Of a stretch of 13,718 bases of DNA, positions 1 to 8,296 are shown piece after piece. Below the pieces are notes generated by a model that was not told where the DNA came from, made no database searches, and was given only the letters and a program-made list of their open reading frames with translations. The stretch comes from a bacterium (GTDB lineage Bacteria; UBA10199; 2-02-FULL-44-16; DYJF01): positions 1-13,718 of the forward strand of contig JBGSNL010000085.1 in assembly GCA_041739675.1 (NCBI GenBank). Direction: 5' to 3'. The number at the start of each line of letters is the position of its first letter. Position 1 is the first letter of the stretch. Both the position numbers and the translations under genes were made by a program.

Positions 1-1521
1 CGCCTTGGCAAGCTCCATCAGATAAAACGAGATCCTGTGCGGCTCCAAAGTCTCCGCGCAGTCGGCGATCACGCGCGGATATTCGCTCAAAAGCTTGGCG
101 ATCGTGAGCTCCTCGGGCAGGTCGAGCGCGGTTAAATCAACCGACTTGAAGTTCATTTTTGCCCCTGCATCTTTGGCTTTTCTGAAGACCGAGGCGATGC
201 GCGCGTGGGCATACTGGATATAGAAAACCGGATTCTCCGGCGTATCCTTCTTTGCAAGTTCAAGGTCGAAATCCAGCTGCGAGTTGTGGGAGCGCATGAG
301 GAAGAAGTAACGGCAGACGTCTTTGCCCACTTCCTTTCTCACGTCTTCCAGAGTTTCGTAGGTGGCGGAGCGCGTGGACATCGAAACCACTTCGCCCGCA
401 CGCACAAGGTTCACAAGCTGGATCAGAACGACGTCGAAATTTTCCTTGGGATAGCCCATCGCGCCGATGGCGGCCCTCATCCTGTCCACGTAGCCCGCGT
501 GATCCGCGCCCCAAATATCGATGACTTTGTCAAAACCGCGGTCGAACTTGTTCTTGTGATAGGCGATATCGGCGGCGAAATAGGTGAGCTCGCCGTCTCT
601 CTTTTTCAAAACGCGGTCCTTGTCGTCCTTGAAGGCGGTGGATTTGAACCACAGAGCGCCCTCATGCTCGAAGATGTATCCGTGATTTTTGAGCTCGGCG
701 ATCGCGCGATCTATTGCCGCGTCGGTATGGAGGCGGTTTTCATGGAAATACAGGTCGTGGATGACGCCCGTCTCCGCCAGATCGCGCTTGATCTCCTCAA
801 GGATCTTTGTCGCAGCATATTCGCCGCAGAGATCGATGGCGTCCTCCTGCGACATGGCAAGGAGCTTTGCGCGCGATTGTGCAGAAACTTCGCGCGCAAG
901 TTGAACGATGTATGCACCCTGATAACACTGTTCCGGGTAACAGACCGATTGCCCTTCCGTTTCCAGGAAACGCAAATATATAGAGCGGCCAAGGGTCTTT
1001 ATCTGCCCGCCGGCGTCGTTGACGTAATACTCCTTTGTCACCTCGTAGCCCGCGGCCTTCATCACATTGCCAAGGACGTCGCCGTAGACCGCCCCCCTGC
1101 CATGGCCGATGTGCAAAGGACCTGTGGGATTGGCGGAGACGAATTCGACCTGAAGTTTTTTCCCGGCGCCGATCTTGAGAGTGCCGTATTTTTCCCCCAT
1201 CGTCTCTATTTCACGGAGCTGTTCGAGATAGAGGCGCGGATCGACGACGATGTTGATGAATCCCGGAGGAGCCACGCTCACTTTTTCGACCAGCCCCTCC
1301 TCTTTAGGCAGATGGGCCATGATGGCCTGGGCAATCAGGATAGGTTTTTTCCTGGTCTTGGAGGCGATGATCATCGCCACATTCGTAGCGAGGTCCCCAT
1401 GCTCGGCCCGCTTCGGCGTTCTAAGCTCAATTTCAGGAATATTATCAAGCTCAAACACGCCATCTTTAATGCATTTCTTTATGGATTGGGTGAGCAGTTT
1501 TTGAAGCCGAACATCGATCAT
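1..1521 (-). CDS. argS: Arginine--tRNA ligase, 3'-truncated by the window edge
   Basis: Manual translation from ATG at 1521: MIDVRLQKLL...HGDLATNVAM...APPGFINI...VEFVSANPTGPLHIGHGRGAVYGD...EYYVNDAGGQ...YFAADIAYH...WGADHAGY...SMSTR...NPVFYIQYAHARIASV. It carries the HIGH and ArgRS-specific motifs and is open to position 1. Not in the ORF track because no stop codon lies in the window. Confidence 0.98.
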   Translation of the reverse strand, partial: MIDVRLQKLLTQSIKKCIKDGVFELDNIPEIELRTPKRAEHGDLATNVAMIIASKTRKKPILIAQAIMAHLPKEEGLVEKVSVAPPGFINIVVDPRLYLEQLREIETMGEKYGTLKIGAGKKLQVEFVSANPTGPLHIGHGRGAVYGDVLGNVMKAAGYEVTKEYYVNDAGGQIKTLGRSIYLRFLETEGQSVCYPEQCYQGAYIVQLAREVSAQSRAKLLAMSQEDAIDLCGEYAATKILEEIKRDLAETGVIHDLYFHENRLHTDAAIDRAIAELKNHGYIFEHEGALWFKSTAFKDDKDRVLKKRDGELTYFAADIAYHKNKFDRGFDKVIDIWGADHAGYVDRMRAAIGAMGYPKENFDVVLIQLVNLVRAGEVVSMSTRSATYETLEDVRKEVGKDVCRYFFLMRSHNSQLDFDLELAKKDTPENPVFYIQYAHARIASVFRKAKDAGAKMNFKSVDLTALDLPEELTIAKLLSEYPRVIADCAETLEPHRISFYLMELAKA

Positions 1522-1563
1522 GGGCACACCTTATATGCTTCCCTTAAAAAATCAAGAATTACG

Positions 1564-1590
1564 GCAACTTTTTGGGGAGATTGACGATAA
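1564..1590 (+). promoter_or_regulatory. Putative sigma28 (FliA/SigD)-like promoter for the orphan gene
   Basis: GCAACTTT-N11-GACGATAA versus consensus TAAAGTTT-N11-GCCGATAA (5/8 and 7/8 matches, exact spacing), ending 46 nt before ATG 1637. Confidence 0.4.
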
Positions 1591-1636
1591 GATCGTTGGT
1601 TGGGGCGATCTCAATAATTTTGCCCCAAATACTTAT

Positions 1637-3640
1637 ATGGCTGACGATATACGAATCAGACGGGACGGCCCTTCTGCCGGCGGCATTGTTGACAATGAGC
1701 CTGCGGAGGCGGAGCAGACTGCTCAAGGCACGGCACAGAATCAGCCGCAGCAAATATCTGCTGTCCCAAAAGATGAATATCTGCCTCCGATGACGCCTCC
1801 CGTGAGCAGGGTTTCACAAATTGGACTCTTTGAAAGAGTCGATCCCAGGCTGGCCGACCAAATGCGAGCAGATATATTGCATTTGTCTGCGGCTAATCCT
1901 TGGTTACTTCGAACATTGGAAGGAACATGCAACTTTCAAGTTCTTGCCGAACGCATCAGTGCAGGCAAACACATCCCGACTTTCGTCTTGCACAATACAG
2001 GTGGCACCCCGGACGGCATCATGGCTTTGTTTACAAACAATCCGTGGTCTGGAGACTTCCCTTTTTCCTATTTGACCTTCTGGGATTATACAGACGTCCT
2101 GCCGACCTCTCTGCTGGCGTTTGCCGTCCGCCGTCGATACCCAAACTTGAGTCTTGAAATTCATTTGTCGCTTCCCGACCTTCTGCATTGGGCCGTCCAA
2201 AATCCAGATGCGTTCCGATCTCCCGGAACACTTTATGTAAGAAACACGTATCTGACACAATTTATTGCATTCGCATTGGATCGGGGCTCGGTGCGAATCA
2301 TAACGTTGCCTCAAGAACGCTACGGAAACGCATGGTATGCTCTTCGGGCACAAACCATGGAGACAGGGGTTGAAATGGTCGTGGCCAAAGGGCGACCGTT
2401 TTATTCCGTCCGCATAGCGCATGAAAGTGGAGTCCCTGTGGATGAAGACCTCCAACTTTGGACAGACTCGGTATTGGACTCGCAACGCTCTGAGAAATAC
2501 GAATTCACCTTTAAAGCGGAAGAACTAGTGGCACGGCTGGAGAAGCAAGGACTGTCACGCTATGCAATTGTCGATGCCCTGAAAATGGCATTCGATTTGC
2601 CCGGCCGGGAAGCGGAGATACTCTTTGTTTTGAGCAAAGAGATCACTCATGATGTAGCTGTCGCCATGCGCAATTCTAGCTATATTACCGAAGATCGCCC
2701 GTTTGGCGACAGGCATGGGGGGATGAGCGTGATCGATCCAGAGCCGCAGAGAGATACACTGACGAATGTGAGCAGGACGAGTCTGCCGGCGGACCGCGAG
2801 CCTCCACAAGCCTTTCTTCAAACCGACAGCGGCCGGTATAAAGCCATCGTCGAGGGTTCGCGTATTCCAAAAGACTTCGTCGGCTTCCTCGCCTACGAGA
2901 GTGTTCTATACAGGATCAGCGGCGGCCGTGTAGAGTCACCCATCGACGGCATGCTTATGACTCCCGGAGAGGGCCAGCAGGTACGTATTTTCAAAATGGA
3001 AAATGGAGAGCTGATATTCTCCCCCTCCACGATGATACGCGAACTGCAGCCGGGAGACGTCGTCGATATTCCGGACGGTCAGAGCGTCAGACGCCTCGTC
3101 CGCGAAGATGAGTTTGAGTTCGCAAGCCGCGGAGGCGAAATAATGGCTGCCAGAGTGATCGGCGGCGAGCCCGGCCAGACGATGCCGCTTGATCAACTGG
3201 GCTTTGGGAGACTCGTCATCGCTGCGAAGCCGGATGGAACCGGAATACAGGTGACAGCGCGAACCGCTGTTTCCTTTGCGCGCATTGATCTCGCCACGCG
3301 CACTCGCGGCCGCACTGTGTACGATATGGTCGCGTCGCCTCAGGAATGGCTTGCTGACAAGGCGGCCGAGCGCGCGGCGGCGGCAGGCAGCGGCGCGGAA
3401 AACGCGGCGCAAGACTCGACTGTAACCGGGATCGTGGATAACACGGGCGAAACGTCGGGCGGCGCTTTTGCCTCTGGTGCAGCGCACCTGTATCCTGCCG
3501 CGCAACATGCAAGGTCACGACAGGCGCAAAGAACGACCGGCTATACTCAACTCGCCGGCGCGCAAAGAGCAATTCGGGCTGGATATGCGGTAACGAACGC
3601 GGCACTACCCGCCGCGCGGCCCATCGTGACGAAATTCTGA
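1637..3640 (+). CDS. Hypothetical protein (~667 aa), no recognised family
   Basis: Long ORF filling the gap between argS and the M16 gene, with no competing long ORF on the other strand. The track start at 1520 overlaps the argS start codon, so ATG 1637 (MADDIRIRRDG) is preferred. Low-complexity N-terminus, globular-looking middle, Ala-rich C-terminus. Confidence 0.8.
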   Translation: MADDIRIRRDGPSAGGIVDNEPAEAEQTAQGTAQNQPQQISAVPKDEYLPPMTPPVSRVSQIGLFERVDPRLADQMRADILHLSAANPWLLRTLEGTCNFQVLAERISAGKHIPTFVLHNTGGTPDGIMALFTNNPWSGDFPFSYLTFWDYTDVLPTSLLAFAVRRRYPNLSLEIHLSLPDLLHWAVQNPDAFRSPGTLYVRNTYLTQFIAFALDRGSVRIITLPQERYGNAWYALRAQTMETGVEMVVAKGRPFYSVRIAHESGVPVDEDLQLWTDSVLDSQRSEKYEFTFKAEELVARLEKQGLSRYAIVDALKMAFDLPGREAEILFVLSKEITHDVAVAMRNSSYITEDRPFGDRHGGMSVIDPEPQRDTLTNVSRTSLPADREPPQAFLQTDSGRYKAIVEGSRIPKDFVGFLAYESVLYRISGGRVESPIDGMLMTPGEGQQVRIFKMENGELIFSPSTMIRELQPGDVVDIPDGQSVRRLVREDEFEFASRGGEIMAARVIGGEPGQTMPLDQLGFGRLVIAAKPDGTGIQVTARTAVSFARIDLATRTRGRTVYDMVASPQEWLADKAAERAAAAGSGAENAAQDSTVTGIVDNTGETSGGAFASGAAHLYPAAQHARSRQAQRTTGYTQLAGAQRAIRAGYAVTNAALPAARPIVTKF

Positions 3641-6514: not shown

Positions 6515-7381
6515 TTATTTCCGCGCTTTAGCCCAATAACCTATCGACTTGTAGATAAGTTTTGCCACCATGAAGTCCGACGCATGATGGCCCTTTTGCG
6601 GGCAAAGCTCAACAAAATCAAATGCAACGATGTTTTTTCGCATCGCCACTTCCCTCAAAAGACCCACCACATCGTACCAGCTGAGCCCGCCCGGCTCCGG
6701 CGTTCCCGTGTCAGGCATGATCGATTGGTCAAAGGCATCCACGTCGACCGTCACATAGACGTTTTTTGTCTTTATGGCGGCCAGCGCCTTTTTCATCCAG
6801 CCTTTGTCTTCATGTATTTTATGGGCGAAAAAGACGGGGAGCTTTTCCCTTGAGACCCTTATTGCCTCATCTTTTGAAAGATTCCTGATCCCCACCTGAA
6901 CCGCGGGGCAGATCTCAAGGCAGCGAGCCATTGCAGAGGCGTGCGACCACTTTGTTCCGCCGTACTCGCTACGCAGATCGGCGTGGGCATCGAATTGCAA
7001 AACCGTGAGGTCGGGATAAATCTTGGCCGCCGCGCGAACCGCCGGCGGCGTGATAGAATGCTCGCCCCCTATGATCACCGGAAGTTTTCCATCGCGGATT
7101 ATGCGGGAGACCGAGGCGCTTATCCTGTCCAAAACATTTTCAATGGAGCCCGCCCCCACTTTCACGGCGGGAAGGGTCGCTATGCCGATATCGCAAGTCT
7201 CCGATTCAAGCTCTTCGTCGTAGAGCTCAACTTGCGCCGATGCTTCAAGGATTGCCTTCGGTGCTTTTGCCGTGCCTTTGACGTAACTCGTGGTCCTGTC
7301 GAACGGCACGGGAAGACAGGCGACCCGTGCCGGAGCGTAGCTTGAAAGCTTGGGAGGAAGATCAAAGTATGTGCGAGCCAT
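6515..7381 (-). CDS. speB: Agmatinase (ureohydrolase family)
   Basis: Motifs VPFDRTTSY, GGEHSIT, DAHADLR, SHAS, DVDAFD, TGTPEPGG and VELCP. Lies 2 nt downstream of an arginine decarboxylase. Confidence 0.93.
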   Translation of the reverse strand: MARTYFDLPPKLSSYAPARVACLPVPFDRTTSYVKGTAKAPKAILEASAQVELYDEELESETCDIGIATLPAVKVGAGSIENVLDRISASVSRIIRDGKLPVIIGGEHSITPPAVRAAAKIYPDLTVLQFDAHADLRSEYGGTKWSHASAMARCLEICPAVQVGIRNLSKDEAIRVSREKLPVFFAHKIHEDKGWMKKALAAIKTKNVYVTVDVDAFDQSIMPDTGTPEPGGLSWYDVVGLLREVAMRKNIVAFDFVELCPQKGHHASDFMVAKLIYKSIGYWAKARK

Positions 7382-7383
7382 TT

Positions 7384-7935
7384 TTATGGAACAAATATCG
7401 CGCCGGCGACGACAGTCGTCCAGTTACCGTGCTTGTCGCCTATGGCCGACTGCGTAACGTTCATCGTCTTGACGATCTCCTCAGAAATCGTCCACTGACC
7501 CTTCCTTTCGTTCCACGACTTATCGGGATCGAACTTGACGCCAAGGATGGTCGCCAGCATTTCGGCCGAAAGATCTTCGGCGTAATCGCCGGTGTGCTGA
7601 TCGGTCTGGCCGAAACTGTGGTGCTCGGAGATGTATCCGTAATATTCAGGATTTTTCGGTATCGAAAGACCGACGGAGGCGGCGACCAGACGATGCGCCT
7701 CGTTGGTTGCGTTGTCCGAGAGCACGCAATGGACGATCTGGCCGGGCCGGAGCTGCAAAATTCCGCGCGAAAGCTGGACAAGCTTGCATCCCGGCGGAAA
7801 AATCGACGACACCCTGACCAGGTTGAACTGCGCGATGCCTGCGCGCCTGAGCGCAAGCTCGAAGCTCTGCAGCTTTTCGCGGTGTACTCCAACTCCTTTT
7901 GTGAAGAAGACCTGCGACGGAACGTAACCTATCAC
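7384..7935 (-). CDS. pdaD: Pyruvoyl-dependent arginine decarboxylase (183 aa)
   Basis: FFTKGVG...SFELALRRAGIAQFNLVRVSSIFPP contains the Ser-Ser autocleavage site, plus GYISEHH and WTTVVAGAIF. The start is reassigned to GTG 7935 because AAGGAGG (7941-7947) lies 5 nt upstream. The track start at 8028 lies within the terminator. Confidence 0.93.
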   Translation of the reverse strand: MIGYVPSQVFFTKGVGVHREKLQSFELALRRAGIAQFNLVRVSSIFPPGCKLVQLSRGILQLRPGQIVHCVLSDNATNEAHRLVAASVGLSIPKNPEYYGYISEHHSFGQTDQHTGDYAEDLSAEMLATILGVKFDPDKSWNERKGQWTISEEIVKTMNVTQSAIGDKHGNWTTVVAGAIFVP

Positions 7936-8018
7936 TTTCGCCTCCTTTTTTCTTTCAGTTGAAGCGCCGGCTAACATATTTAGGCCGCCTTCACAAGATA
8001 AAATTGGGGTATTCCCCC

Positions 8019-8055
8019 AAAAAAACAAAGGGCCCGGGGTTTAACCCTGGCCCTT
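8019..8055 (-). terminator. Rho-independent terminator downstream of the basic micropeptide gene
   Basis: Minus-strand RNA AAGGGCCAGGG-UUAAAC-CCCGGGCCCUU followed by UGUUUUUUU: 11-bp GC-rich stem with one A-G mismatch plus a U tract. Confidence 0.85.
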
Positions 8056-8077: not shown

Positions 8078-8176
8078 CTATCTTCTTTTTTTCCTCTTCA
8101 CTCTTTTTACTTTCTTTGCTCTCTTCTTCGTCTTCTTTACTTTCTTCACCTTCTTCACTTTTCTCTTCTTCGGCAT
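8078..8176 (-). CDS. 32-aa Lys/Arg-rich micropeptide (protamine/histone H1-like or leader peptide): MPKKRKVKKVKKVKKTKKRAKKVKRVKRKKRR
   Basis: ATG 8176 to TAG 8078. Shine-Dalgarno AAGGAGG at 8182-8188 with 5-nt spacing, its own sigma70 promoter upstream and a terminator 22 nt downstream. 17 K + 6 R of 32 residues, none acidic. Confidence 0.85.
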   Translation of the reverse strand: MPKKRKVKKVKKVKKTKKRAKKVKRVKRKKRR

Positions 8177-8222
8177 CTCGTCCTCCTTTTATAAAAAGGT
8201 TTGTTATTTCGTAACTGATTGA

Positions 8223-8251
8223 ATTTTACGCAATTATGCCATCATAGTCAA
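8223..8251 (-). promoter_or_regulatory. sigma70-type promoter for the micropeptide gene
   Basis: -35 TTGACT (8251-8246), 17-nt spacer, -10 TAAAAT (8228-8223), preceded by a very AT-rich UP-element-like tract (8252-8295). Confidence 0.8.
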
Positions 8252-8296
8252 ATTATTTTTATAAAATTTTACTAAATTATGTAAAAATATTTCAAC

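Follow-up and report, generated by a model that had tools for sequence, protein, structure and literature searches.

A 13,718-nucleotide stretch of bacterial DNA (the window) carries a gene for a 32-residue mini-protein rich in lysine and arginine, and comparison with related genomes indicates that this is a real stand-alone protein-coding gene under selection. We put the probability at about 0.6 that its product is an abundant, minimal polycation of the nucleoid that resembles the tail of histone H1. Such a tiny lysine-rich peptide would bind phosphate backbones by charge, independently of sequence, and would neutralise and compact DNA, and probably RNA too, like an H1 tail without the globular domain; the chromosome would be its main target. 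Strong expression of the mini-protein is predicted from its expression signals, and disorder from its composition.

The mini-protein gene and its expression signals

The reading frame runs from an ATG start to a TAG stop (Table 1) and encodes 17 K, 6 R, 5 V and one each of M, P, T and A, confirming the 23 basic residues, with no D or E, that the original prediction had counted. The K+R fraction ranked 4th among the 91,418 start-to-stop frames of 15-150 aa in the source genome (G000; 1.91 Mb, 94.6% complete, 53% GC), outranked only by two sub-frames internal to it and by one sub-frame of a K-rich gene on contig C15.

The promoter motif, Shine-Dalgarno (SD) sequence and terminator that had been predicted to flank the frame were all located, with the AAGGAGG 5 nt 5' of the ATG and a folding energy of -18 kcal/mol for the terminator hairpin. 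Promoter-like matches were no commoner in the window than expected by chance (9 vs 6.9 +/- 2.7 in shuffles). The combined promoter and SD pattern, derived from the relatives' loci, had a single match in the whole G000 genome, at the mini-protein gene. The 25 nt 5' of the -35 box had the highest A/T content among the 141 near-consensus promoter sites of the genome, and the promoter boxes were unchanged among G000, G001 and G002.

A pyrimidine hairpin covering the SD was predicted in most members of the family and was more stable than in shuffles (mean 5'UTR fold -5.07 vs -4.01 +/- 0.3 kcal/mol, 52 members); it could be a site of translational control or mere compositional pairing. A second K-rich mini-gene, of 29 aa, lies at G000:C15:17433-17522 (minus strand), with an N-terminal C-G-x-C motif, an AGGAGG SD and a TTGTCA-17-TATTAT promoter motif. 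Its 27-aa counterpart occupies the same site in the same-genus genome G001 (L184:1501, plus strand), and the other 91 genomes of the phylum gave no true pattern match to it.

Table 1. Positions of the mini-protein gene, its signals and the adjoining polyamine genes in the window.
Feature	Positions	Strand	Basis
Lysine/arginine-rich mini-protein gene, 32 aa	8078..8176	-	Counterparts in 37/41 genomes; purifying-selection signatures
UP-element-like A/T-rich tract, 5' of -35 box	8252..8276	-	24/25 A/T; putative function
Sigma70-type promoter motif TTGACT-17-TAAAAT	8223..8251	-	Motif search
Shine-Dalgarno AAGGAGG (8188-8182) and weak pyrimidine hairpin predicted over it	8182..8199	-	Folding
Intrinsic terminator hairpin and U tract	8019..8055	-	Folding
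Separate pdaD promoter-like motif TTG[T/A]-16..18-TGnTA	7972..7996	-	Conserved between terminator and pdaD
Pyruvoyl-dependent arginine decarboxylase pdaD	7384..7935	-	PF01862 E=9e-58; likely GTG start with own SD
Agmatinase-family ureohydrolase (speB-like)	6515..7381	-	PF00491 and TIGR01230 above cut-off

Conservation and distribution

Within the uncultured GTDB phylum of the source (93 genomes, one class), 37 of the 41 genomes compared had an equivalent stand-alone gene; among the 35 with a completeness of at least 90%, the number was 33. No copy was found in G010 (81% complete), G021 (78%), G028 (100%) and G035 (98%). A lack of conservation of the ORF, the SD and the frame in relatives had been set beforehand as what would refute the gene, and all three proved to be conserved.

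In the 41 genomes, an SD-led K-rich ORF lay 71-275 nt 5' of pdaD at 20 of 30 pdaD loci, that of G000 included. The other ten comprised three loci cut by contig ends, five without such an ORF, one with 578 nt in which it was absent, and the second pdaD of G000. Pattern searches for unlinked copies, in which the patterns were adjusted step by step, added 8 further genomes, then 6, then 3, to reach the 37, and the remaining genomes of the phylum supplied three additional members. A profile HMM built from 27 members matched only 1 of the 41 genomes, so unlinked copies were taken as orthologues by their composition and signals together with partial synteny. A loose pattern matched 92 of the 93 phylum genomes and was left out of the counts; strict patterns matched 23/93 and 28/93 genomes with unrelated genes included, and therefore our count of genomes with the gene is confined to the 41.

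Members from the source's own phylum (n=40) were 15-153 aa long, with a median of 30.5 and 27 of them at 35 aa or less. A promoter motif was present 5' of 34 of 37 own-phylum members, and a terminator-like element was present 3' of all 49 members analyzed, compared with a mean of 3.3 (max 7) in shuffles. The layout of promoter, SD, ORF and terminator is thus conserved in relatives, as expected from the original prediction of a stand-alone gene.

Two further features were seen at these loci. Terminal cysteines, which could serve in cross-linking or metal binding, occurred in 5 of the 52 members of the statistics set and also in L188 (L007, L010, L013, L018, L066, L188). Another type of K-rich mini-gene, of 27-33 aa and ending in LRYRG, was convergent to the main peptide gene at L128:2197-2277 (plus strand) and L123:2110-2208 (minus strand); in L128, a single bidirectional terminator seems to serve both mini-genes.

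Of the 32 pdaD loci compared from more distant GTDB genomes, one, a Krumholzibacteriia record, had the same layout. Around that Krumholzibacteria genome, 16 of 18 loci had the layout 5' of pdaD (one positive with a stretch of N), the other two being a truncated locus and a distant paralogue; twelve Krumholzibacteria members entered the statistics. The Krumholzibacteria members (L087-L097) have a longer 5' UTR of ~110 nt with conserved paired blocks 5' of the SD that may form a structured RNA. Metagenomes yielded 80 pdaD loci, 69 of which had at least 400 nt upstream, and two of these 69 had the mini-protein gene, both with a pdaD at least 70% identical to that of G000; a third match was dropped because it had no SD. 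Adjacency in 1/32 GTDB and 2/69 metagenome loci indicates that the arrangement is lineage-limited. A fusion of the lysine tract to pdaD in distant phyla was not seen in the 32 loci. A convergent origin of the adjacency seemed likely from a FastTree tree, but an AU test did not reject a single clade (p-AU 0.84, the quick free tree search being suboptimal), and the adjacency may have arisen once or twice.

Selection at the protein level

Across 52 members (2,146 codons), the family consists of 56% K, 16% A, 9% V, 8% R, 5% T and 3% P; about 65% of the residues are basic, Leu makes up 0.3%, and D, E, N, Q, F, W and Y do not occur. From positional base frequencies, ~284 GAN codons were expected in the 1,956 codons of the 49-member set. 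Members had been filtered for at least 45-50% K+R, and an acid-free composition was not required.

The members are related, so the codon and frame figures are descriptions and not p-values: the other two frames contain 117 and 51 stops, the ATG frame being stop-free by definition; AAA-AAA occurs at 0.66 of the within-gene expectation in the mini-protein genes and at 1.36 in 698 long ORFs of the genome; and AAA-AAA-AAA occurs 0 times vs 28.1 expected in the former and 3 vs 15.5 in the latter. The ATG frame was the highest in K+R in only 31 of 49 members, because frame +1 reads Arg-rich. The same avoidance of AAA runs has been reported and linked to ribosome sliding (PMC4363877), and it could come from DNA slippage instead. 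The spacing between SD and ATG is conserved among the members.

The tripeptide periodicity noted in the original prediction is present in the window peptide, as an x-K-K period of 3, but it is not a trait of the family: period 3 is dominant in 2 of 37 own-phylum members and periods 5-7 in 33, the overall range being 2-7. Only two alignment columns are invariant. The span of 15-153 aa and the varying period suggest that charge, not fold, is kept, and the comparison indicates that selection is for basic residues with short A/V/T/P spacers at any length or period. Poor visibility to tryptic proteomics had also been foreseen, and the longest tryptic fragment indeed has 3 residues in the G000 peptide and at most 5 across the members.

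SWIB-like relatives and a proposed role in the nucleoid

That only charge and small spacers are kept, with length and period drifting, points to sequence-independent binding of polyanions. Polycations bind polyanions of every kind, so the composition does not tell whether the target is DNA, RNA, ribosomes or polyphosphate. The best clue is that the same lysine tract also forms the N-terminal head of a SWIB-like domain of ~45 residues; 14 of the 30 loci examined had a K-rich head of 20 residues or more. The SWIB-like protein was found in 34 of the 93 phylum genomes, its N-terminal tail being K-rich and 5-94 residues long (L140, L142-L146, L152-L181), and no match to the tailed protein was obtained in G000. 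Three of six full SWIB-like proteins gave weak matches to PF02201 (E 9e-5 to 7e-3) that lie below the Pfam cut-off, and the domain aligns to no more than positions 6-38 of the 74 in the profile; its ESM Atlas neighbours include SWIB-named ones, the nearest clusters coming from Nitrososphaerota. The length of the head tracked that of the free peptide (rho 0.77, n=21; 0.86, n=10 within one family), a correlation that may come from genome-wide repeat-expansion rates, gene conversion or kinship. The presence of the same tract on a SWIB-like protein, with co-varying length, favours a chromatin role.

Related proteins are reported to act on DNA: SWIB-4, which carries an H1 motif, compacts nucleoids (PMC4154389), the Waddlia SWIB protein Wcw_0377 binds genome-wide (PMC6426960), Hc1 and Hc2 condense DNA or nucleoids, Hc2 with a preference for RNA (PMC2848022), and KPAA peptides bind DNA (PMC9239181). 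Archaeal nucleoid-associated proteins (NAPs) are described as being encoded mostly in single-gene operons (PMC7613761). As a working class we took NAPs to be small, basic and encoded in single-gene operons; the mini-protein has 32 aa, 23 of them basic, and promoter and terminator motifs of its own flank the gene. It speaks against the nucleoid reading that ordinary NAPs are already present in G000, in the form of four HU/IHF genes and a tail-less SWIB; the peptide would supplement these and not replace them. No SET methyltransferase match was obtained in G000. Long K-rich N-terminal tails were also seen on DUF4912 proteins (L141, L149, L150).

Of the original prediction of a protamine-like condensing peptide, the condensing role can be kept and the likeness to protamines cannot. 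We infer a condensing role from the same tract on the SWIB-like proteins, but the composition is that of a lysine-rich peptide and not of a protamine; with the family's proportions of K and R, H1-tail-like fits better than protamine-like.

The main rival, which we regard as rather unlikely, is that the peptide mainly binds RNA or ribosomes, as a tiny ribosomal protein (of the bS22, bTHX or eL41 type), an rRNA or mRNA chaperone or a damper of translation. The median length, the charge and the strong expression motifs would all fit. Moreover, Hc2 is reported to bind RNA better than Hc1 and to repress translation (PMC2848022), and a Toxoplasma H1-like protein to associate with ribosomal proteins (PMC9769792). 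A ten-fold range of length, a variable period and two invariant columns are nevertheless ill-suited to a fixed ribosomal pocket, neither a ribosomal-protein family nor a PDB sequence was matched, and no ribosomal-protein gene was recognised among the annotated neighbours. Thus, of the marks by which we tested for the ribosomal-protein class, namely fixed length, position-specific conservation and a family or structure match, none was found. Non-specific RNA binding by the peptide may nonetheless occur.

The neighbouring polyamine genes

The mini-protein gene had been predicted to lie beside polyamine genes. The genes for pdaD and the ureohydrolase do adjoin it, but the linkage is not obligate and pdaD has a promoter motif of its own. 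This motif, which was read off the same loci on which it was counted, was present in 18 of 20 linked loci, compared with a mean of 0.43 (max 3) in shuffles, and in 12/12 further linked loci. The polyamine operon 3' of the mini-protein gene appears, from these motifs, to be separately promoted, and pdaD is a frequent but not obligate neighbour that lies outside the mini-protein unit. Ten peptide-bearing genomes gave no pdaD match, and five of them re-searched with the Pfam family again gave none (0/5). In G025, the peptide gene is directly 5' of the ureohydrolase gene. G000 has a second pdaD paralogue (C31:2775-3311, L030), 60% identical and without an upstream peptide gene, which groups beside Krumholzibacteria enzymes in a quick tree.

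Three wider Krumholzibacteria loci have the order peptide, pdaD, ureohydrolase and deoxyhypusine-synthase (DHS) homologue, and a DHS homologue was present in 6/6 peptide-bearing genomes searched, in G000 on another contig. Both findings, together with the position of the gene directly 5' of pdaD in two phyla, speak for a place of the peptide in the polyamine pathway, either as a substrate for lysine modification by the DHS homologue (SpeY) or as a stand-in or activator balanced against homospermidine. We consider this improbable. Bacterial SpeY is described as coupling two agmatines to homospermidine (PMC13625781), a route that explains the Krumholzibacteria operon without the peptide. In addition, there are the peptide-bearing genomes without a pdaD match, the rarity of the adjacency elsewhere, the single inherited origin that the AU test did not reject, and the separate contig of the G000 DHS gene. 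The adjacency of mini-protein gene and pdaD is best read, from the loci compared, as an old gene order, kept perhaps because both the peptide and the operon supply polycations. Given the DHS homologue in all six genomes, the mini-protein may still be linked to polyamine chemistry.

Upstream of the mini-protein gene lie eamA, larB, rluB, scpB, scpA and trpS, where the names rluB, trpS and scpA/B are interpretations of Pfam matches. The predicted proximity to scpAB is correct as to position, the start of scpB being 2.5 kb upstream. But scpB was inside the short loci in only 5 of 40 cases and inside the wider loci of G001, G002 and G037, and was not found in those of G007, G009 and G026 (the G026 contig ends 1.7 kb upstream), suggesting an inherited gene order with no functional evidence in it. 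Elsewhere in the window, an ORF of 706 aa at 1520-3640 (plus strand) had no Pfam or NCBIfam match. In three relatives, an unannotated acidic ORF of ~55-60 aa is conserved on the opposite strand between the ureohydrolase gene and an M16 peptidase pair (L133:10900-11300, L134:10720-11000, L135:3830-4020, minus strand).

Other readings of the peptide

Binding to polyphosphate or another storage polyanion, in the manner of the AlgP and PhaF tails, is a still less probable function. The KPAA tail of AlgP is reported to organise polyP granules (PMC9239181). The mini-protein, however, has no granule-targeting domain, and a search of G000 (94.6% complete) that covered PPK1, not PPK2, gave no PF02503 (PPK1) match.

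Polylysine-type peptides are membrane-active, and on this ground the product could be an exported cationic antimicrobial or cell-penetrating peptide. This is very improbable, as the family shows neither a leader nor a hydrophobic face, aromatic residues are absent and Leu is scarce, and there is no conserved transporter, protease-leader or immunity partner (an EamA neighbour was present in 11 of 40 short loci).

There is little more than a slight chance that the ORF is an Arg/Lys-sensing leader peptide that controls pdaD by attenuation. A short Arg/Lys-rich ORF followed by a terminator directly 5' of an arginine decarboxylase gene is what such a leader would look like, and all six Arg codons are AGR; but AGR already makes up 38% of the Arg codons genome-wide, and 10 of 49 members have no Arg. 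We used an equilibrium folding model to compare naked RNA, a stalled ribosome and a ribosome at the stop, counting a change of >0.3 as a switch: the terminator probability was independent of ribosome position (mean 0.96-0.97) in 49/49 loci, with 0/49 switching. Since the terminator did not switch, pdaD has its own promoter motif 3' of the terminator, and the mini-protein gene is kept where pdaD was not found, the gene is very probably not an attenuator leader, a reading that the folding model and these counts largely refute in silico.

It is hardly credible that the ORF is incidental to a purine-rich non-coding repeat or a small RNA, for although the region is made up of a low-complexity 9/18/21-nt repeat, the SD-ATG spacing is conserved, acidic codons number zero against the hundreds expected, stops are confined to the other frames, and no Rfam match was obtained (best E=0.59, far below cut-off).

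Database searches

Neither the peptide nor any of 11 relatives came near a cut-off in the Pfam and NCBIfam scans, and the PDB sequences gave 0 matches at E<=10. The window peptide was absent from the ESM Atlas, where only unnamed clusters of 25-37 aa were returned, at 0.88-0.90 and with low recognition; the Atlas does hold a SWIB-fused relative. A phmmer search with a 78-aa member gave six matches at E 0.3-0.8, three of which (P0003-P0005) seem to be calls of similar K-rich genes that were extended too far at the N terminus. By exact sequence, 0/10 members were found in a collection of 15 billion proteins (a look-up without positive control), and a literature search, with most subscription journals outside its scope, listed no published account of the family.

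Discussion

Bacterial H1-like proteins are known as proteins of 150-350 residues or as tails of larger ones; here, the tail alone is the gene. Such a tail-only gene, usually of ~30 residues, is near-universal in one phylum and recurs in a second. As judged from composition and context, the mini-protein would be a new minimal form of the bacterial H1-like proteins. Three standard methods miss the family: family HMMs, look-up in a large protein collection, and trypsin digestion. If the peptides are abundant, one of the major components of bacterial chromatin is missing from its inventories, and the proposal that lysine-rich peptides of bacteria gave rise to linker histones (cited in PMC9769792) would gain a minimal, synthesisable example.

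A joint reading, which we hold to be doubtful, would combine several of these observations. The chromosome would be packed throughout the phylum by a poly-lysine peptide of 20-40 residues, expressed from among the strongest promoters, together with a lysine-tailed half-SWIB whose tail co-evolves in length; the peptide would be tied to the homospermidine operon so as to balance protein and small-molecule polycations, with the DHS homologue possibly modifying its lysines. If this were true, a minimal chromatin system of the linker-histone-tail kind would have escaped annotation, HMM search and tryptic proteomics.

Among known systems, chlamydial Hc2 (HctB) and the Hc2-like BpH1 of Bordetella/Burkholderia share with the family Lys/Ala/Val/Thr/Pro repeats, a repeat region without globular domain and, as a test of membership, length variation by intragenic gain and loss of repeats (PMC2848022). 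Hc2 is described there as consisting of consecutive pentamers with two basic residues each, with 165-237 aa and a distinct C-terminal domain, and we took 150-240 aa as the length of a member (PMC2848022). In contrast, the mini-proteins have a median of 30.5 aa, ~65% basic residues, periods of 2-7, a range of 15-153 aa and no further domain. The window peptide gave no match to PF07382, and the best member, of 91 aa, reached E=0.17 and 12.4 bits vs the 40 required, another reaching E=7.1. Protamines, which have ~30 aa, are ~70% basic and are arginine-rich, resemble the window peptide in size and basic share, but the window peptide has 6 R vs 17 K and the family 8% R vs 56% K. By these comparisons, the mini-protein is outside Hc2, the protamines and any Pfam or NCBIfam family.

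The C-terminal tail of H1 and the tail-only H1-like proteins of kinetoplastids and Toxoplasma are, like the family, lysine-rich, acid-free and domain-less (PMC9769792). The likeness is compositional: unlike the TgH1-like protein (91 aa), the family is bacterial, mostly about one third as long and denser in charge, with no known nucleosome partner. Plastid SWIB-4, chlamydial CT460 and Wcw_0377 join an H1-like motif to a SWIB domain, much as the tract is joined to a SWIB-like domain in the relatives, whereas the window gene is the tail alone and the half-domain of the relatives is below the Pfam cut-off. The KPAA tails of Pseudomonas AlgP and PhaF likewise consist of disordered repeats rich in Lys, which bind other polyanions as well as DNA (PMC9239181), but they are C-terminal on large proteins (AlgP, 352 aa) and have one Lys per four residues. 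Finally, E. coli Tpr, which is encoded in the tyrT transcript, has been listed as small and protamine-like (PMC3141248); it lies inside a tRNA transcript, whereas the mini-protein gene is flanked by promoter and terminator motifs of its own.
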